Source of the DNA: Candidatus Saccharimonadota bacterium
Lineage (GTDB): Bacteria; Patescibacteriota; Saccharimonadia; Saccharimonadales; JAICHO01
Assembly: GCA_025924835.1 (NCBI GenBank)
Contig: JAICHO010000002.1
Coordinates: 604-64,603 of the forward strand
Direction of reading: 5' to 3'
Length of the DNA stretch: 64,000 nt
Shown here one piece after another: positions 36,930 through 43,467 of the stretch. The position numbers were made by a program, and so were the translations under genes. The notes under the pieces are model-generated. The model saw only the letters and a program-made list of their open reading frames with translations. It was not told where the DNA came from and ran no database searches. Each line of letters starts with the position of its first letter. Positions within the stretch are counted from its first letter, which is position 1.

Positions 36930-37014
36930 GCGGATGTGGTGGAATTGGTAGACACGCCAGTTTTAGGAGCTGGTGCCGTAAGGCGTGAAGGTTCAAGTCC
37001 TTTCATCCGCACCA
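36930..37014 (+). tRNA. tRNA-Leu (anticodon UAG), long variable arm, CCA encoded
   Basis: Acceptor GCGGATG/CATCCGC and anticodon stem CCAGT/GCTGG with loop TTTAGGA (anticodon TAG). Also a variable arm GTGCCGTAAGGCGT, a T-arm GAAGGTTCAAGTCCTTT, and a terminal ACCA. Confidence 0.9.
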
Positions 37015-37663: not shown

Positions 37664-37984
37664 ATGTCTAAACATCATACTCATAGCTACCACCAACATA
37701 AAAAGGCAGCGACAAAAAGAAAAAAAACCAAATCGCCGATTGACTATATGGTTGCTTTTTTCATGTTTATGTCACCATTGTTTGAGTTGCCCCAGGCAGT
37801 CAATATTTATACCCAGAAAAGTTCCCATACTGTATCGCTGACAACATGGATATTATTTTTTGTCGCTAGTGTTGCATGGTTAATTTATGGTGTAAGGAAC
37901 CGCCTTCGATCAATTATTATCATACAAATCATTTATATGGTTATTGAAGCGACAGTTGTAGCTGGTATAGTTCTTTATCCCTAG
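37664..37984 (+). CDS. SemiSWEET-like (PQ-loop, 3-TM) small transporter with a basic His/Lys N-terminal tail
   Basis: 106 aa with three hydrophobic helices and the PQ motif at the end of helix 1 (MSPLFELPQAVNIYTQKS). Size and topology match bacterial SemiSWEETs. Confidence 0.6.
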   Translation: MSKHHTHSYHQHKKAATKRKKTKSPIDYMVAFFMFMSPLFELPQAVNIYTQKSSHTVSLTTWILFFVASVAWLIYGVRNRLRSIIIIQIIYMVIEATVVAGIVLYP

Positions 37985-38040: not shown

Positions 38041-38526
38041 ATGGAGCCGAGTTTAATACATTCTTTAATTGGTAATCTGGGACTGAGCCCGGATTTTTCT
38101 AATAAATTTGAGGGCTCGCCCGGTTCCAAAACAAAGCAAAAGAATAATGTCAAGCAAGGTGTTCAGATTGTAGTCAATGTCAATGGCGTCGCCGCCGAGA
38201 AGCGTAAAGAAACTACAAACAGCAAAGTCGGTACGTATAAGGAGGGCTACCATGCGGTTTTCCTTGATAACAACCAGGTCTATTTTGGTAAGTTAAAGCG
38301 TTTTGCGGACAATGCCCAATTCGTCTCATTAAAGGATGTTTATTACTTGCGTGACATTAGCGACGAGGCCGTGCTGAACTTTGATTTGGTCAAACTTGGC
38401 AGCGAAATTCATTCGCCAGAGGATGAGATGCATATAAACGTTAGTAAAATTTTGTTTTGGGAAAAACTGAAAGACAGTGGCCCAATCGTAACCGCTATCC
38501 TTAATTTTGAAGATGGTATAGTATAA
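38041..38526 (+). CDS. Hypothetical protein (start uncertain)
   Basis: 161-aa ORF. The C-terminal ~90 aa (YHAVFLDNNQVYFGKLKRF...) looks globular. No motif recognised. Confidence 0.4.
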   Translation: MEPSLIHSLIGNLGLSPDFSNKFEGSPGSKTKQKNNVKQGVQIVVNVNGVAAEKRKETTNSKVGTYKEGYHAVFLDNNQVYFGKLKRFADNAQFVSLKDVYYLRDISDEAVLNFDLVKLGSEIHSPEDEMHINVSKILFWEKLKDSGPIVTAILNFEDGIV

Positions 38527-38550
38527 AACTCAATCCGGGCAACGAGACTA

Positions 38551-39249
38551 ATGGCTACAAATACCGAATCATCTCCAGAGACCACACGACGCGAGCATGG
38601 CTTACTGCTCCGTAGAGCTTTAAAGCTGGGCACTGCAGCTTTGAGCGCCTTACTACTGTTTGGCGTGGTCGAAGCTACTCACGCCCCGACGCGGGCAAAG
38701 CGTTCGTATCATGCTGTCACCAGATGGGCAGGTACCGGTTATGATTCACTGAATGATTTATTAAACAGCTTATCCTATGAGCCCGCTCACTACGATAATC
38801 CCACCGAACAAGCTATATATGAGGAGATTGGACAAGGCAGGGCTAAACAGAAGCAGCTGCCTGTTATAGAGGGCGTGCTAGCGGTTTCCAATAACGACAT
38901 GAGGGCACAAGCTGATCAACTGCCGTCATTTGCCATACAAAATCCAGTGCTCGTGAGCATCAAAAATGGCGATCAAACCGATCAATATTTGGTAGCGCAT
39001 AATGGCCGAACAGCCGATACGCCTAAAGATCTGTTATATATCCCTCTTGCGGACGCACAATTTTGTAGCACAGTGGATGCCGTACCACGGGTCGTTAATA
39101 GAATGTTGGGTAGTAATCGACAAACCAACGGATTTGAAGCTACGGATGTCGGCACTGTCGTTTATGTGCCCGCGGATATCGCGGCTGGCTGCCAACGTGA
39201 GGTTGCCGTGTCAGAAATCAACCAGCAGACGCTCCAGCCTGCCGCGTAG
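38551..39249 (+). CDS. Hypothetical membrane-anchored/exported protein
   Basis: 232 aa with an N-terminal basic region plus a hydrophobic helix (LGTAALSALLLFGVVEA). The remainder is unrecognised. Confidence 0.45.
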   Translation: MATNTESSPETTRREHGLLLRRALKLGTAALSALLLFGVVEATHAPTRAKRSYHAVTRWAGTGYDSLNDLLNSLSYEPAHYDNPTEQAIYEEIGQGRAKQKQLPVIEGVLAVSNNDMRAQADQLPSFAIQNPVLVSIKNGDQTDQYLVAHNGRTADTPKDLLYIPLADAQFCSTVDAVPRVVNRMLGSNRQTNGFEATDVGTVVYVPADIAAGCQREVAVSEINQQTLQPAA

Positions 39250-39272
39250 GTATCAATAACTGTAAAATAGAT

Positions 39273-39301
39273 TTGCAGAACATTGACTAGTGTGGTATAA
39301 T
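39273..39301 (+). promoter_or_regulatory. Promoter TTGCAG-17-TGgTATAAT (extended -10) of the his leader
   Basis: TTGCAG at 39273-39278, a 17-nt spacer, TG at 39293-39294 and TATAAT at 39296-39301. The hexamer ends 7 nt before ATG 39309. Confidence 0.6.
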
Positions 39302-39308
39302 GTAATTT

Positions 39309-39365
39309 ATGTTTATAGCAACTAACCAGCATCATCTGCATATATTGCCGGAGTCTCTCCGTTAG
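39309..39365 (+). CDS. Candidate his leader peptide MFIATNQHHLHILPESLR (18 codons)
   Basis: ATG TTT ATA GCA ACT AAC CAG CAT CAT CTG CAT ATA TTG CCG GAG TCT CTC CGT TAG. Three His codons fall in a 4-codon run. The ORF lies between a strong promoter and an intrinsic terminator directly upstream of a hisG-like gene. Confidence 0.5.
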   Translation: MFIATNQHHLHILPESLR

Positions 39366-39387
39366 TTTGCTACTGTTTTAAATTGCT

Positions 39388-39419
39388 AACGCCGGAGCTG
39401 CTCTCCGGCGTTTTTTGTT
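39388..39419 (+). terminator. Intrinsic terminator (attenuator) in the his leader
   Basis: AACGCCGGAG-ctgct-CTCCGGCGTT is a perfect 10-bp stem with a 5-nt loop, running into TTTTTTGTT. It lies 30 nt upstream of ATG 39449. Confidence 0.8.
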
Positions 39420-39448
39420 ATTTTCAACTATTTAAATAAGGAAATGTA

Positions 39449-40417
39449 ATGATAAATGTAATTGAGGCCGCTCAGGCGGCCGAACGAATAGTAGTACCTA
39501 AGGGTGATGATAATAAAGGATGTATACAGGCATTTCAAGAAGTAACCGATATTGAAGTACCTATTTTTAGTGATCGTGCATATAAAGCCGTGTCTCAAGG
39601 TAGGGAATTCTTTTTGGTTAAAGGCAAAGACATACCTCGCATTGTTTCATCGGACCGCTTTAGTGTTGATGTTGGCTTAACCGGCTATGATTCTTATCTA
39701 GAATTTGCCGGTGTCTCAGCAGTAAACCTAGCATATCAAAAGGTTGGTCGTCCAATGTGCGAGTTTGCATTATTGGCGCCAACAGACGAAGCGGAGCGCA
39801 CGGTTTGGCTTTTAGACAATAGCATGAGTCCGCTACAGGTAGAAACCAGCTTCCCGCGTCTATTAAGCGGCTTAGCTGCCACCAGTGACTTAAACATAAC
39901 GGTCTTGAATGATGGGCTATCTGGCAGCATGGAAATTATGCCGGAGTTAAGTGGCATACGACTAGTGGCGGATTTGGTAACGAAAGGAGACACAGCAAGA
40001 GCTAACGGTGTAACACCGATTCGGAAACTTATCGATGTCTATCCAGTTTTGGTTGTGAAAGATGGTAGCCAGCCCGAGACTGACAGCCCTAGGACTTATC
40101 AGGGCATTGACGCAATTGACCAGACACTGACAGCTCGTTATCGGGCAATAGACGACCCGTCACAATCTTCATACACCATCAGGCAAATGCGTGATCCTAA
40201 TAAACGGCGGAAAAAGGTGACCGAAGAAGCAGGTGAGGTAATCATCGCATCATGCATCGGCACTACCGAGGAGCTGGTTAGCGAACTTGCAGATAGTGTA
40301 TTGGCCGGCATAATAGACTTAAAAGTTAAATCTGAAGGCCGGTTGGGACTGGGAGCAGTAATTGACGAGCTGATAGCGCGCAATGTCCGAATGACTTCCA
40401 GTGGGAGAAATCGCTAG
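39449..40417 (+). CDS. hisG: ATP phosphoribosyltransferase (short-form HisG-like) fused to a HisE-like phosphoribosyl-ATP pyrophosphatase domain
   Basis: The N-terminal ~215 aa resemble HisG (KGKDIPRIVSSDRFSVDVGLTGYD; GSMEIMPELSGIRLVADLVTKGDTARANG). The C-terminal ~95 aa resemble HisE (SYTIRQM...KKVTEEAGEVIIAS...EELVSELADSV...GLGAVIDELIARN). Confidence 0.65.
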   Translation: MINVIEAAQAAERIVVPKGDDNKGCIQAFQEVTDIEVPIFSDRAYKAVSQGREFFLVKGKDIPRIVSSDRFSVDVGLTGYDSYLEFAGVSAVNLAYQKVGRPMCEFALLAPTDEAERTVWLLDNSMSPLQVETSFPRLLSGLAATSDLNITVLNDGLSGSMEIMPELSGIRLVADLVTKGDTARANGVTPIRKLIDVYPVLVVKDGSQPETDSPRTYQGIDAIDQTLTARYRAIDDPSQSSYTIRQMRDPNKRRKKVTEEAGEVIIASCIGTTEELVSELADSVLAGIIDLKVKSEGRLGLGAVIDELIARNVRMTSSGRNR

Positions 40418-41697
40418 TGCGTACCTATACTAATCCAGGCTCGGAACAGTGGGATGCCATATCATGTCGTCCTGTGCTGAGCACGCATGGGCTTGACCGG
40501 TTGATAGCCGCAATTTTTACAAAGGTCGAGAACGAGAACGACGAAGCGCTAATTGCGCTCACAAGAAAATTTGACGGCGTAAAGCTTAAGACGTTAGTAC
40601 TGTCTAAATACCGTGTCCGCAGACTTGCTGACCAAGTCCCCGCAAAATTAAGAAAGGCTATAGACGTGGCCTTTAACAACATTCAAGCTTTTCATGTAGC
40701 GCAAATACCGGACCTAGAAAAAGAGACTGTCCGGATTGCATCAGGCGTATTGTGTTGGCGCGAAAATCGGCCAATTGAACGAGTCGGGCTGTATGTTCCT
40801 GGTGGCAACGCCCCACTTGTTTCTACGGTTTTAATGTTAGGTGTACCAGCGCAGATTGCCGGATGCAATGAATTGGTCATTTGTACCCCGCCTCAAAAAA
40901 ATGGAAATGTTACGCCTGCGATATGCTACGCTGCACTCAAAGTAGGCGCTACTAAGTTAATTACGCTCGGCGGCGCCCAAGCCATTGCGGCTATGTCGGT
41001 TGGAACAAAGACTGTACCTAAAGTAGATAAAATCTTTGGGCCTGGCAACCAATATGTAACTGCAGCAAAGCACTACGCGGTTAAATATGGCGTGGCTACT
41101 GATATGCCGGCCGGTCCTTCTGAGGTGCTAGTCCTGGCAGATAAGACAGCTAGCCCTCAGTTTGTGGCCGCTGACTTGTTGAGTCAGGCTGAACATGGGG
41201 CAGATAGCCAAGTGGTCTTGGTGTCTACTGACGAAGAAGTACTGAAATTAGTAAAGCAAGAGCTAACGATGCAACTAAAAACCATGCCTCGTTCTGCCAT
41301 AGCAAAGGCGGCTTTAGCTCATTCATTCGCTGTATATTTTGATGACATGCCTACTGCGCTTCGGTTTGTTAATACTTATGCGCCCGAGCACCTCATACTG
41401 AATATTAAAAACCCAAATGGTGCAATTGCCGCTGTTAAAAATGCGGGATCAGTATTTTTGGGCAATTATTCCCCAGAAAGCGCTGGTGATTACGCGTCAG
41501 GTACTAACCACACACTGCCAACTAATGGTTGGTCCAAAAGTTACGGCGGCGTTTCATTAGACAGTTTTGTCAAAAAGATAACGTTTCAATCACTGTCTAG
41601 GAGCGGTCTTAAAAGCCTAGCACCGACCATTGTGGAATTAGCTGAGTCGGAAGGCTTAAGCGCACATGCTGAAGCGGTGCGTATTCGACTTAAGTAA
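40417..41697 (+). CDS. hisD: Histidinol dehydrogenase
   Basis: 426 aa with LLSQAEHGADSQ, GPSEVLV, YAPEHL and GDYASGTNHTLPT motifs. The GTG start overlaps the upstream TAG by 1 nt. Confidence 0.9.
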   Translation: MRTYTNPGSEQWDAISCRPVLSTHGLDRLIAAIFTKVENENDEALIALTRKFDGVKLKTLVLSKYRVRRLADQVPAKLRKAIDVAFNNIQAFHVAQIPDLEKETVRIASGVLCWRENRPIERVGLYVPGGNAPLVSTVLMLGVPAQIAGCNELVICTPPQKNGNVTPAICYAALKVGATKLITLGGAQAIAAMSVGTKTVPKVDKIFGPGNQYVTAAKHYAVKYGVATDMPAGPSEVLVLADKTASPQFVAADLLSQAEHGADSQVVLVSTDEEVLKLVKQELTMQLKTMPRSAIAKAALAHSFAVYFDDMPTALRFVNTYAPEHLILNIKNPNGAIAAVKNAGSVFLGNYSPESAGDYASGTNHTLPTNGWSKSYGGVSLDSFVKKITFQSLSRSGLKSLAPTIVELAESEGLSAHAEAVRIRLK

Positions 41698-41722
41698 AAG
41701 TAAGCTATAATCGGAGTAAATC

Positions 41723-43030
41723 ATGGCACTATCAACCCAACCATATAAAGGCGCTCGGGATTTCTACCCGGCAGATAAGCGCATGCAAAAATATTTGTTT
41801 AGCGTCATGCGTCGTGTCTGCGAAAGTTATGGCTACGAAGAATACGACACACCTATTTTGGAGCCGACCGAGCTGTTTGCCAGCAAGACAAGTGACGAAA
41901 TAGTAAATGAACAAACCTATACGTTTACAGATCGGGGCGGACGCAGTGTTACGGTACGTACAGAAATGACACCATCAGTATCGCGCATGGTGGCGGCCAA
42001 ACGCCAGGAGCTGGCATATCCGCTCAGGCTCTACGCTATCCCGAACCTATGGCGCTATGAGCGTCCGCAGCGCGGCCGCTTACGTGAATTCTGGCAGCTT
42101 AATGCTGACATATTTGGTGTAGCCGGTTTGGCGGCCGAGCAAGAGCTCATACAACTACTTGATGACATTATGCAGGCATATGGCGCTAAGCGAGATATGT
42201 ACACCATCAAGCTAAGTAGCCGTAAACTAATCAATGCTTTCTTAGGTGAAGTTCTGGGCATGGACGAGACACAGATAACAACTATGATCCGCCTGATTGA
42301 CCGGATGCATAAAATGGAACATCCGGAATTTATTGGCCAAGCTGATGCAATATTTAGTCCTACGCAGCGTGAGACAGGTGCGAGCGAGCAATTATTCGCC
42401 TTACTTAATACCTCATCACTAGATAGTTTACCAGCTACTATCGCCAACCATGAGACATCAATTAGCATGAAACGAATAATAGAAAAACTTGAAAAAGCAA
42501 AGATTACAAACGTCGTTTACGACCCCACAATCATGAGGGGGTTTGATTATTATACCGACATTGTATTTGAAGTTTACGATACGGACCCCGAGAATAATCG
42601 TGCCATGTTCGGCGGCGGCCGCTATGATAGTTTAGTGAGTCTTTTTGGCGTAGACGCAGTGCCGACCATTGGTTTCGGTATGGGCGACGTCACGCTACTT
42701 AACTTTTTAGAGACGCATAATCTACTGCCAAAGTTACGACCTGAAACTGATATTTATATTGTTACTATCGGTGAAGCGGATGAGGCGGCTAGCAAAGCTG
42801 CAGCTGACCTGCGTGAAATGGATATAAATGTGGCATTAGACATAACGGGCCGTCAGGCAGAAAAACAGATTAAGACAGCCGAAAAGAAGGGTGTCCATTA
42901 TGTTTTATTCGTTGGTGAAAAAGAAGCAGCCAGCCAGCAATTTGTCCTTAAAGATCTAGAATCTGGAACACAGGAAACACATGGCTTGGAGCGCATTGCC
43001 AGTATAGTCAAGGATTATCGCAGCGCGTGA
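41723..43030 (+). CDS. hisS: Histidine-tRNA ligase
   Basis: Class II motifs (RYERPQRGRLREFWQ, GGGRYD) and a C-terminal anticodon-binding domain. TATAAT at 41706-41711 and GGAG lie upstream. Confidence 0.9.
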   Translation: MALSTQPYKGARDFYPADKRMQKYLFSVMRRVCESYGYEEYDTPILEPTELFASKTSDEIVNEQTYTFTDRGGRSVTVRTEMTPSVSRMVAAKRQELAYPLRLYAIPNLWRYERPQRGRLREFWQLNADIFGVAGLAAEQELIQLLDDIMQAYGAKRDMYTIKLSSRKLINAFLGEVLGMDETQITTMIRLIDRMHKMEHPEFIGQADAIFSPTQRETGASEQLFALLNTSSLDSLPATIANHETSISMKRIIEKLEKAKITNVVYDPTIMRGFDYYTDIVFEVYDTDPENNRAMFGGGRYDSLVSLFGVDAVPTIGFGMGDVTLLNFLETHNLLPKLRPETDIYIVTIGEADEAASKAAADLREMDINVALDITGRQAEKQIKTAEKKGVHYVLFVGEKEAASQQFVLKDLESGTQETHGLERIASIVKDYRSA

Positions 43031-43467
43031 CTGCTACCAACCATGTTTTAACGGGAGCCTTAATTGGCCTTACGATTCATCAGCCCGTACTGGCGGTTAT
43101 GCTGGCCATAATCTCTCATTTCTTGTTAGACGCATTGCCTCATTATGGAGCTAAAAATTTAAAGGGTCATGGCTTTAAGCTGTTGCTAGGCGCAGACGCA
43201 TTACTAGCAAGCTTTATTCTGTTAGCTTTGGTTGTAGGCAGGCCAATGGGCTGGCAGCTAGCCGTAGGATGTGGCGTCGCGGCAGCTAGCCCTGACCTTA
43301 TGTGGTTACCTGGATGGTTACGCATGCTCCATGGGCGGTCACGCGGTCGATTCAATGCCATTATGAAGATGCACAAAGAAATCCAGTGGGCGGAAAAGGC
43401 CAAAAACTATCCATTTGAAATCATCTGGCTCGTAAGCGGGGTTATCTTGCTGGTAAAATTAGTCTAA
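43027..43467 (+). CDS. Small polytopic membrane protein, YdjM/DUF457-like (putative membrane-bound metal-dependent hydrolase)
   Basis: 146 aa with 4 predicted helices and an ISHFLLDALPH motif. The start overlaps the hisS stop. Confidence 0.5.
   Translation: MTATNHVLTGALIGLTIHQPVLAVMLAIISHFLLDALPHYGAKNLKGHGFKLLLGADALLASFILLALVVGRPMGWQLAVGCGVAAASPDLMWLPGWLRMLHGRSRGRFNAIMKMHKEIQWAEKAKNYPFEIIWLVSGVILLVKLV

Follow-up and report, generated by a model that had tools for sequence, protein, structure and literature searches.

A 64,000-nucleotide (nt) stretch of contig JAICHO010000002.1 from a Candidatus Saccharimonadota bacterium (hereafter the window, numbered from its first letter) carries, directly upstream of the histidine-biosynthesis gene hisG, a short leader that, judged by comparison and folding, is likely to be a ribosome-mediated transcription attenuator sensing charged tRNA-His. 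The leader is a bona fide member of a family of at least 61 distinct sequences in contigs of Saccharibacteria/Patescibacteria. An earlier note, made from the letters of this DNA alone, had proposed a classical His-codon attenuator at this place, in which pairing of segments 1 with 2 and 3 with 4 alternates with pairing of 2 with 3. Conservation, pairing and the switching of folds under a masked ribosome all speak for that proposal, although the form of its antiterminator, the position of its stalled ribosome and its principal target have had to be revised.

The gap between the upstream open reading frame (ORF), which encodes 232 amino acids (aa) and ends with a stop codon at 39247-39249, and the hisG-like gene is 199 nt long in the sequence read from 39000 to 39700. 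Within it, sequence and scan confirm each component that the earlier note had placed there, namely a promoter, an 18-codon ORF, four segments and a 10-bp terminator stem, all on the forward strand. A hexamer resembling a −35 box, TTGCAG (39273-39278; TTGCAA in the relative L005 and TCGCAG in L001), stands 17 nt ahead of an extended −10 sequence, TGgTATAAT (39293-39301); our consensus scan entered this promoter as an overlapping TTTGCA-18-TATAAT with TG and 10 of 12 consensus matches. Seven nt past the −10, an ATG opens the leader ORF (39309-39365), which encodes MFIATNQHHLHILPESLR in 18 codons and closes with TAG at 39363-39365; its codons are ATG TTT ATA GCA ACT AAC CAG CAT CAT CTG CAT ATA TTG CCG GAG TCT CTC CGT TAG, and the His codons CAT CAT (ctg) CAT (39330-39341) occupy positions −11, −10 and −8 from the stop. 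There is no Shine-Dalgarno (SD) sequence in the −10-to-ATG interval, and since the ATG also coincides with the predicted start of transcription, the mRNA is probably leaderless.

Segment 1 (GCCGGAG, 39347-39353) and segment 2 (CUCCG, 39357-39361), followed by UUAG, make up the strand (39347-39365) that serves as the 5′ side of the antiterminator in constrained folds. Segments 3 (AACGCCGGAG, 39388-39397) and 4 (CTCCGGCGTT, 39403-39412) are the 5′ and 3′ arms of an intrinsic terminator (39388-39412) that reads AACGCCGGAG, loop cugcu, CUCCGGCGUU; it has 10 pairs, 7 of them GC, a 5-nt loop and a hairpin energy of −16.7 kcal/mol, and it runs into the U-tract TTTTGTT (39413-39419), which the scan records as TTTTGTTATT. 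Segment 2 can pair with segment 3, and segment 1 with segment 4. A further helix, P1, appears in the minimum free energy (MFE) fold between UAGCAACUAAC (39316-39326, the Thr-Asn codons directly 5′ of the His codons) and GUUAG-u-UUGCUA (39361-39372), a strand that contains the stop codon and overlaps segment 2. Altogether the 124-nt region folds at −38.6 kcal/mol, compared with −21.8 ± 3.2 kcal/mol for dinucleotide shuffles (z = −5.3; 0 of 200 as low). The terminator hairpin lies 36 nt from the hisG ATG and ends 25 nt ahead of the hisG SD, AAGGAAA (39438-39444), with which it does not pair; the consensus scan found no promoter-like site between terminator and hisG.

These elements, their conservation, their pairing potentials and the dependence of the fold on the position of a ribosome footprint come from sequence and computation; from them we infer translation of the ORF, its leaderless start, stalling and the regulatory outcome. 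Transcription would begin with the A of the leader ATG (39309) or with a neighboring nucleotide, and a 70S ribosome would translate the 18-codon leader while RNA polymerase proceeds. With His-tRNA plentiful, the ribosome would reach the TAG at 39363 and its footprint would cover segments 1 and 2 (39347-39365), so that the terminator (39388-39412) would fold and transcription would end before hisG. With His-tRNA scarce, the ribosome would stall with its A site on one of the adjacent His codons (39330-39335), covering the 5′ strand of P1 (39316-39326) and exposing segments 1 and 2; segment 2 would then capture the emerging 5′ arm of the terminator (2:3), segment 1 would take the 3′ arm (1:4), and the long antiterminator hairpin thus formed would let polymerase read into hisG-hisE, hisD and hisS. 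Where there is no translation, P1 would hold the stop-codon region and the terminator would form. The regions of a textbook attenuator would accordingly map to the 5′ strand of P1 (region 1), the 3′ end of the ORF with its stop (region 2) and the terminator (regions 3 and 4). Undercharged tRNA-His would lead to more histidyl-tRNA synthetase, and to more histidine-synthesis enzymes where these are present, which would constitute a homeostatic loop.

The nested geometry of this antiterminator, with 2:3 and 1:4 formed together, is on balance likely in the light of alignment and folding. It departs from the earlier note, which had taken a 5-bp 2:3 helix as the switch; such a minimal switch cannot compete with a terminator of −16.7 kcal/mol and was rejected. 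The note had also let the stalled ribosome cover segment 1, whereas a ribosome on the adjacent His codons leaves both segment 1 and segment 2 free. Its remark that 1:4 pairing is possible holds good, this pairing being part of the nested antiterminator in constrained folds.

A leader family upstream of hisG and hisS

Our first sample, unbiased as regards the leader, consisted of contigs with HisG homologs, in which the region 5′ of hisG was read (13 distinct loci, designated by L numbers). Directly 5′ of hisG in 12 of the 13 stands either a mini-ORF like that of the window or a full-length gene, hisR, with a His-rich tail, together with a terminator. The two forms occupy one and the same position, the longer being a 105-110-aa gene of Pfam family PF01371 with a similar tail. 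Mini-ORFs read MIYQSSQHHLHILPERLG in L001, MNIVRTNHHLHILPERLG in L005, MKYLLTNQHHVHMLPERIG in L008/9, MVYNQFNHVHILPERIG in L020 and MLKQFSNQHHVHIQPERHG in L021, and the full-length genes end in NQHHTHRPPARAE (L002), GHHTHISPARAE (L004), NHHNHISPAQAG (L014), IHHNHIAPARAG (L016), AHHGHVPPERVG (L018) and EHQGHITPAHAV (L019), each up to the stop codon. Both forms are followed, past the stop, by a terminator ACGCC...GGCGT with a T-run, and by the SD and ATG of hisG 35-50 nt further on. Conservation among relatives, which the earlier note had named as a check on its proposal, is thus found for the mini-ORF, for the His codons and for all four segments. At one Saccharimonadales locus (L017:2200-2560) hisR abuts hisG, its tail (NQKSSRKSGRKVTS, up to the stop) lacks His codons and no terminator follows; this locus is a natural "attenuator-less" control.

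A scan of genome contigs with the HisG alignment gave 7 loci only. A scan of metagenome DNA with the pattern CAYRTNNNNCCGGAGNNNNNCSGTTAG, whose translation specifies no more than H-[IVM]-x-P-E-x-x-[GR]-stop, gave 94 stretches. About 20 of these were excluded as chance matches, since they fall within long ORFs or lack both a His run and a terminator. Oriented and freed of duplicates, the hits include 61 distinct sequences (counting the window) in which an ATG opens an ORF of 17-20 codons and a terminator hairpin follows. Five further leaders fall outside this set, four missed by the terminator filter and one, with a GTG start, by the ATG filter.

The leaders share the consensus M-x3-5-TNQHHLHILPERxG followed by the stop (as a profile, M-x3-5-T-N-Q-H-H-[LV]-H-[IM]-[LS]-P-E-[RL]-x-G). 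Two of the His positions lie outside the search pattern, and they are occupied by His in 50/61 (position −11) and 53/61 leaders (position −10); His at −8 is set by the pattern in the mini-ORFs and is seen independently in hisR tails. At least two His codons within five codons are present in 61/61. Both CAT and CAC occur, third-base variation at these positions being mostly C/T, and diverse residues are found at −9, −6, −3 and −2 while the pairing nucleotides are kept (e.g., NNG at −6 and NNC at −2). An SD-like sequence precedes a single leader of the 61, and in 42 the ATG comes 5-8 nt after the end of a TANNNT hexamer, as in leaderless mRNAs. The terminators have the form AACGCCGG..CCGGCGTT plus a T-run, with hairpin energies of −8 to −22 kcal/mol, and the hairpin starts 19-30 nt past the stop in 59/61 leaders and 20-25 nt past it in 51/61. 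This conserved spacer, mostly of 21-24 nt, would put a ribosome at the stop codon near the hairpin with no overlap, an arrangement that would fit the geometry of a coupled polymerase and ribosome.

The constancy of the peptide raises the question of whether TNQHHLHILPERxG itself acts, as a micropeptide or arrest peptide that binds metal or stalls the ribosome on free histidine in the manner of TnaC. For a leader peptide the degree of conservation is unusual, HHxH resembles a metal-binding motif, and both classes of locus have an invariant Pro at −5; yet Pro and Glu were imposed by the search pattern, and positions −9, −6, −3 and −2 accept chemically diverse residues with the pairing nucleotides kept. 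The hisR tails, moreover, read PPARAE where the mini-ORFs read LPERxG, yet His codons are retained in them, as is complementarity to terminator arms that differ from those of the mini-ORFs, and according to the folds stalling at the stop codon would favor termination. An acting peptide therefore strikes us as highly improbable, and sensing of His-tRNA by the translating ribosome as the better account of the conserved codons.

Many mini-ORF promoters also share an element ATTGAC(A)TAAGTGGTATAAT (39283-39301 in the window; also in L005, L021, L052, L077, L099 and L111). Its TTGAC is only about 7 nt from the −10 and hence too close for a −35; an operator, what is left of the old hisR −35, and a promoter element particular to the lineage are all conceivable.

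Folding with a ribosome in place

Each leader was folded from its ATG to the end of the hairpin, with a ribosome represented as a footprint from −15 to +12 of the P site that was forced to remain unpaired; in folds with a stalled ribosome, everything upstream of the footprint was masked as well. When the ribosome is placed at the stop codon the terminator is part of the MFE structure in 61/61 leaders, in agreement with the earlier note, according to which a ribosome at the stop allows 3:4 to form. Moving the A site to codon −11 or −10 leaves the terminator in 2/61, and with the A site on codon −8 it persists in 19/61; the free RNA, with no ribosome, has it in 29/61. The structure that takes its place is a long hairpin between the last seven or so codons plus the stop, on one side, and the whole terminator region, on the other, in which segment 2 binds the 5′ arm and segment 1 binds the 3′ part of the loop and the 3′ arm. 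In consensus form GCCGGAGCG pairs with CGCUCCGGC and UCGGUUAG with CUAAcgCCGA/G. If the exposed ORF segment is shuffled, the antiterminator wins in 6.7% of trials, as against 59/61 leaders observed.

Pairs were counted on an alignment of the 61 sequences (A2). The antiterminator is paired in 86.1% of cells, compared with 31-49% for slid registers; changes on both sides occur at 58-127, 59-126 and 60-125, and its covariation score was reached by 0/500 shuffles. For the terminator 89.3% of cells are paired (36-49% when slid), with five covarying, compensatory pairs. Compensatory changes in the segments, another check that the earlier note had named, are thus present in part, and pairing of terminator and antiterminator stands far above the slid controls. 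A signal independent of the columns fixed by our search pattern appears at the level of classes: mini-ORFs combine GCCGGAG with ACGCCGGA..TCCGGCGT, and most hisR tails combine CGCCAGC with terminators of the form ACGCCAGC..GCTGGCGT. RNAalifold, run on A2, gave the terminator plus a 4-bp local hairpin of segments 1 and 2 built from invariant columns; because it reports one structure, it neither finds nor excludes the antiterminator. The core of P1, CUAACC:GGUUAG, is paired in 87.6% of cells (10-51% when slid). A role for P1 as a 1:2 or pause helix is plausible but weakly supported, and its action as a pause hairpin is speculation.

Strong alternative structures and visible constraints at the RNA level are also what a translation-independent switch would have, in which a ligand, a tRNA or an RNA-binding protein acts on the RNA and the ORF is incidental. 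It is in keeping with such a switch that third positions and pairing nucleotides are conserved as the amino acids at −6, −3 and −2 vary. Against it, the element is only about 105 nt long and matches no Rfam family, T-boxes and known riboswitches included; frame, start and stop are strictly kept; third bases at the His positions are mostly C/T, so that His is preserved; and the same module lies inside the coding sequence of hisR, through which ribosomes necessarily pass. We therefore regard a switch of this kind as very unlikely.

Several observations weigh against an attenuator that senses charged tRNA-His. The size of the footprint was assumed from E. coli ribosomes. Free RNA already favors the antiterminator in 32/61 leaders, so that termination as the default state where there is no translation is not general. 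The 5′-strand columns of the antiterminator are half invariable, given that A2 stems from a pattern fixing CCGGAG and C[CG]GTTAG, and its covariation hence rests on few pairs; the shuffle control, too, ignores phylogenetic relatedness. Changes in P1 are one-sided and G.U-compatible, with a single pair changed on both sides, and 6/500 shuffles reach its score. The window leader has three His codons, and we saw no terminator between the upstream 232-aa ORF and the leader; transcripts begun further upstream may therefore sometimes run through the leader, and in these the ATG would be internal and without an SD.

The window's own copy adds to this list. As free RNA (39309-39412) it folds at −32.1 kcal/mol into P1 (39316-26 with 39361-72) plus the terminator, and with a ribosome at the stop the terminator wins. 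With the A site on His8 or His9, the nested antiterminator (39347-53:39403-09 and 39357-61:39393-97) reaches −24.7 kcal/mol and an enforced terminator −23.5 kcal/mol. The comparison of fold energies for which the earlier note had asked hence favors the antiterminator on the HH codons, by a margin over terminator plus 1:2 of only 1.2 kcal/mol; with the A site on His11 the terminator wins. The tail of the window leader is atypical, TCT CTC CGT (SLR, in ...PESLR) in place of the usual CGN NTC GGT (RxG), and as a result a strong local hairpin of segments 1 and 2, the 1:2 pairing of the earlier note, narrows the margin to this value. The closest relative, L001, whose HisG is 75% identical, has the consensus tail. 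Judged by these energies, the window copy may respond weakly, have a smaller dynamic range or be kinetically controlled.

Relation to hisR

The TrpR-like gene found 5′ of hisG or hisS in deeper Saccharibacteria belongs to the YerC/YecD group of the TrpR family (PF01371). PMC9413887 equates this group with HisR, a histidine repressor known by prediction from Firmicutes and other phyla and by in vitro validation from Ruminococcus gnavus, with a published box cacTTTAnnnnnnTAAAgtg. All of the full-length Saccharibacterial loci that we read have the arrangement TTGACA-N5-ACTTTAcnnngaTAAAGT-N6/7-ATG, where ACTTTAcnnngaTAAAGT (ACTTTA-N6-TAAAGT) matches the published HisR box and overlaps the −10. The full-length gene shares with the mini-ORF the geometry from −10 to ATG, again that of a leaderless start, and hisR must be translated. 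The group is large (more than 1000 homologs), and among the best 120 there are 98 with three His residues in a tail of the form HHxH[IMLT][PS]PARAE. Where a terminator was detected in a full-length locus, the His codons stand at −11, −10 and −8, the spacer measures 21-26 nt, and the same footprint-dependent switch is obtained (8/8 loci).

The leader is homologous to the last 13 or so codons of hisR, its TNQHHLHILPE aligning with the tail N-x-HHxH-I-[PS]-P. The marks of descent are there in the tail HHxH-[I]-x-P, in the terminator ACGCC..GGCGT and in synteny 5′ of hisG or hisS. Full-length hisR in L018 and L071 ends in a tail of the mini-ORF type, PPERVG, with a GCCGGAGCGAGTCGGTTAG segment, and by these features it is an intermediate form. 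The record in question (DATKRL010000001.1) is labeled "Candidatus Dormiibacterota bacterium", and its locus is a typical hisR-attenuator-hisG-hisD locus of the Saccharibacterial type; the label may be a binning or labeling error, or there may have been horizontal transfer.

In the window, a tblastn search with a Saccharibacterial HisR query found nothing significant, and no TTTA-N6-TAAA box was seen on reading the promoter region. With 18 codons, no helix-turn-helix (HTH) domain and no HisR box, the window ORF cannot be a repressor; as a HisR/YerC-YecD gene it was rejected, the approximately 100-aa HTH domain of the Trp_repressor fold being absent. We consider it likely, from these comparisons, that the mini-ORF arose by an in-frame collapse of hisR that kept the attenuator alone. 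The simplest history would be that the attenuator existed first at the 3′ end of hisR and that an internal deletion in one lineage removed the body of the repressor along with the HisR box; the leaderless sensor ORF of 17-20 codons would since have been maintained by selection.

Descent from hisR is equally what one would expect of a neutral relic, in which the mini-ORF is a decaying 3′ remnant, the hairpin is the old terminator of hisR, leaky enough for hisG-hisD-hisS to be expressed, and histidine is not sensed. The clear homology of the ORF tail to hisR tails, the lack of hisR in the window, and the atypical tail and marginal energy switch of the window copy can all be cited in its favor. 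A decaying remnant, however, sits poorly with an open frame of 17-20 codons, an ATG at a fixed distance from the −10 and His at −11, −10 and −8 that have been kept in at least 61 sequences, a conservation that persists while HisG and HisS have diverged to 36-60% identity. The complementarity between the 3′ end of the ORF and the terminator is, besides, well above shuffled expectation, and full-length hisR genes already carry the same antiterminator. A pseudogene relic was accordingly rejected on conservation, and its probability seems to us slight.

A broader proposition concerns hisR itself, and on it our judgment is evenly balanced: that hisR is a "coding leader" whose last 11 codons and terminator sense His-tRNA, so that repressor-operator control and attenuation of hisS and his genes would be combined on one transcript, and that in one clade the 110-codon gene has shrunk in frame to a leaderless sensor of 17-20 codons, the form that the window would carry. 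Term searches of PMC9413887 returned no mention of a module of His codons and terminator at the end of hisR.

Full-length hisR is also found ahead of genes without an obvious histidine connection. In L118 and L119 it is followed by a 456-463-aa protein without a Pfam match and an S-Me-THD-like protein, and in L122 and L123 by a 275-aa unassigned ORF and an LDcluster4 protein, the attenuator tail being seen in L122. The regulon may thus extend beyond hisS and his genes. Elsewhere in the window, a 106-aa MtN3/PQ-loop (SemiSWEET-like) ORF (37664-37984, forward strand) begins MSKHHTHSYHQHKK, codons 4-7 being CAT CAT ACT CAT. The resulting HHTH is identical to a motif of hisR tails; no terminator or leader architecture was seen there, and chance or a His-rich tail at the N terminus is the probable explanation of the motif.

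Target genes and known systems

The first gene under the predicted control of the window leader is a hisG-hisE fusion (ATP phosphoribosyltransferase plus a PRA-PH domain; 39449-40417; Pfam PF01634 and PF01503, and NCBIfam). It is followed by hisD (histidinol dehydrogenase; 40417-41697; PF00815, E = 2.8e-158), whose start overlaps the hisG stop, and by hisS (histidine--tRNA ligase; 41723-43030; TIGR00442, 355 bits against a cutoff of 287), all on the forward strand and so densely packed that there is no space for internal promoters. Besides the synthetase, they account for the two opening and the two closing steps of the pathway; hisI, hisA, hisF, hisH, hisB and hisC were not seen near 39449-43030. 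The earlier note had spoken of a his cluster, and his genes are indeed present according to Pfam and NCBIfam, although the set comprises the hisG-hisE fusion, hisD and hisS and is not a full his operon. Fusion of HisG to a PRA-PH domain is rare: a word-indexed search of 5.8 billion proteins gave 8 homologs, the named ones being from Candidatus Saccharimonadales.

Behind the leaders of the family, tblastn with the window proteins places hisS downstream in most loci of adequate length, sometimes directly (83-170 nt from the stop) and sometimes with one or two genes between; a minority of loci have hisG and hisD. In the main, then, the family consists of hisS leaders, which also serve any his genes that a locus may have. 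Genes between leader and hisS encode HisG, HisG-E, HisD, a HisH-like amidotransferase, HisI, a GNAT fusion, an M15 peptidase and unassigned ORFs. Directly behind the leader in L026, L030, L110 and L114 is a Cys-containing family of 211-226 aa (PW.EVS.C, C..C) with no Pfam match, which precedes an ORF of about 235 aa and then hisS; it may have an unrecognized histidine-related function. The first ORF past the leader in L049 encodes 451 aa with an N-terminal GNAT domain (the sole Pfam call), and its C-terminal half, judged by eye, has Cys motifs (CGNAT.., ACGSGT) reminiscent of DapF-type epimerases/racemases.

Downstream of hisS, the window has a 146-aa ORF without a family, then tig and clpP (Pfam/NCBIfam). 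This ORF (43027-43467, forward strand) overlaps the hisS stop and has no match in Pfam or NCBIfam, and an ORF of 146-151 aa likewise lies between hisS and tig in L001, L005 and L008; it is a conserved gene, probably co-transcribed with hisS. Upstream, a tRNA-Leu (anticodon TAG) lies at 36930-37014, about 2.3 kb 5′ of the leader. In L008 and L009 an apparent tRNA-Leu (judged by eye; L009:2150-2235) ends about 40 nt ahead of the leader promoter, and from the difference in distance two ORFs of the window, at 38041-39249, look like an insertion between tRNA and leader.

Leader-peptide attenuation is a textbook mechanism in Proteobacteria and has been predicted in a few Firmicutes and Actinobacteria; in the literature that we searched there is no description of it in Saccharibacteria or the candidate phyla radiation (CPR). 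An aminoacyl-tRNA synthetase operon under a leader peptide rich in the cognate residue has a precedent in the pheST leader (pheM) of E. coli, which differs in amino acid and in phylum, has no homology to the present leaders and depends on an SD. The Rfam models, run on the whole window at the gathering score, recovered only the tRNA-Leu, and run on 39200-39500 at E ≤ 10 only chance-level matches to sRNAs and miRNAs. His_leader (RF00514), with no covariance-model match at either setting, was rejected as an identity for the element; so were the T-box (RF00230), with no Rfam match and a leader of about 105 nt containing a conserved ORF, and known riboswitches, again with no Rfam match.

Functionally, the closest likeness is to the enterobacterial hisL and trp leaders: a short ORF with cognate codons precedes an intrinsic terminator, and the antiterminator that excludes the latter has a 5′ strand which would be covered by a ribosome at the stop and exposed by a stall, with a helix of the 1:2 type in untranslated RNA. 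Readthrough upon stalling is the textbook reading in PMC9413887 as well. The differences are nonetheless considerable. There is no homology to hisL in sequence or structure (no Rfam match); E. coli has seven His codons in a row, as opposed to three (HHxH) here; region 2 contains the stop codon; pairing of the antiterminator extends over both arms and the loop of the terminator and is not confined to the 5′ arm; and the start is predicted to be leaderless and without an SD, the main target is hisS and the host is a CPR bacterium.

Attenuators with His leaders have been predicted in the Bacillus cereus group, before his/hisZ and a hisS paralog (in passages of Naville & Gautheret 2010, PMC2965389), and in Peptostreptococcaceae (some Eubacteriales) and Erysipelotrichales, before his operons (in passages of Ashniev et al. 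2022, PMC9413887). The earlier note had been aware of no description of such attenuation for a reduced, Gram-positive-type or CPR-like genome; in view of these Firmicutes predictions its Gram-positive part is outdated, and the part about the CPR stands insofar as we found no case. In the same passages the Firmicutes attenuators, reported from groups without HisR and T-box control, are short ORFs with 3-5 His codons and a terminator/antiterminator, one of them before a gene of the hisS family, and in these respects they resemble ours. They are described there as replacements for HisR with no sequence relation to it, whereas here, as far as a comparison by description goes, the leader shares homology with the hisR 3′ end. 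Unlike the Firmicutes cases so described, relatives of the window carry full-length hisR together with the module, a 105-110-aa PF01371 protein being encoded at the very position of the mini-ORF.

Short ORFs with which an operon mRNA begins, without a 5′ untranslated leader, are known from mycobacteria, and the geometry of our leader (the −10 ends 7 nt before the ATG) suggests the like here. In the mycobacterial polycysteine ORFs, ribosome stalling on cognate codons reports amino-acid supply and controls downstream genes at the level of translation (Canestrari et al., 10.1101/834739). Masking of a downstream ribosome-binding site in the mycobacterial manner was rejected for the window, which has a canonical terminator and no pairing with the hisG SD; the canonical intrinsic terminator indicates transcriptional control, unlike that of the mycobacterial Cys ORFs.

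New in the present case are the phylum, how large and uniform the family is, the role of hisS as its main target, the leaderless start that we predict and the derivation from hisR that we propose. Gene regulation in CPR/Patescibacteria is almost unexplored, and the attenuator family adds a case that is conserved, easily recognized and found mostly before the essential gene hisS. It would provide a concrete instance of tRNA-charging surveillance in ultrasmall epibionts that import amino acids, and it would imply tight coupling of transcription and translation as well as leaderless initiation in Saccharibacteria. For annotation, the consensus can seed an RNA-family model for Saccharibacteria, and it flags an 18-codon ORF missed by gene callers. 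The link to hisR may offer a rare view of the origin of a leader peptide, in which the 3′ end of a protein gene doubles as a cis-regulatory sensor; if the coding-leader proposition is true, it would document a route by which a classical leader peptide was born from the gene of a regulatory protein.

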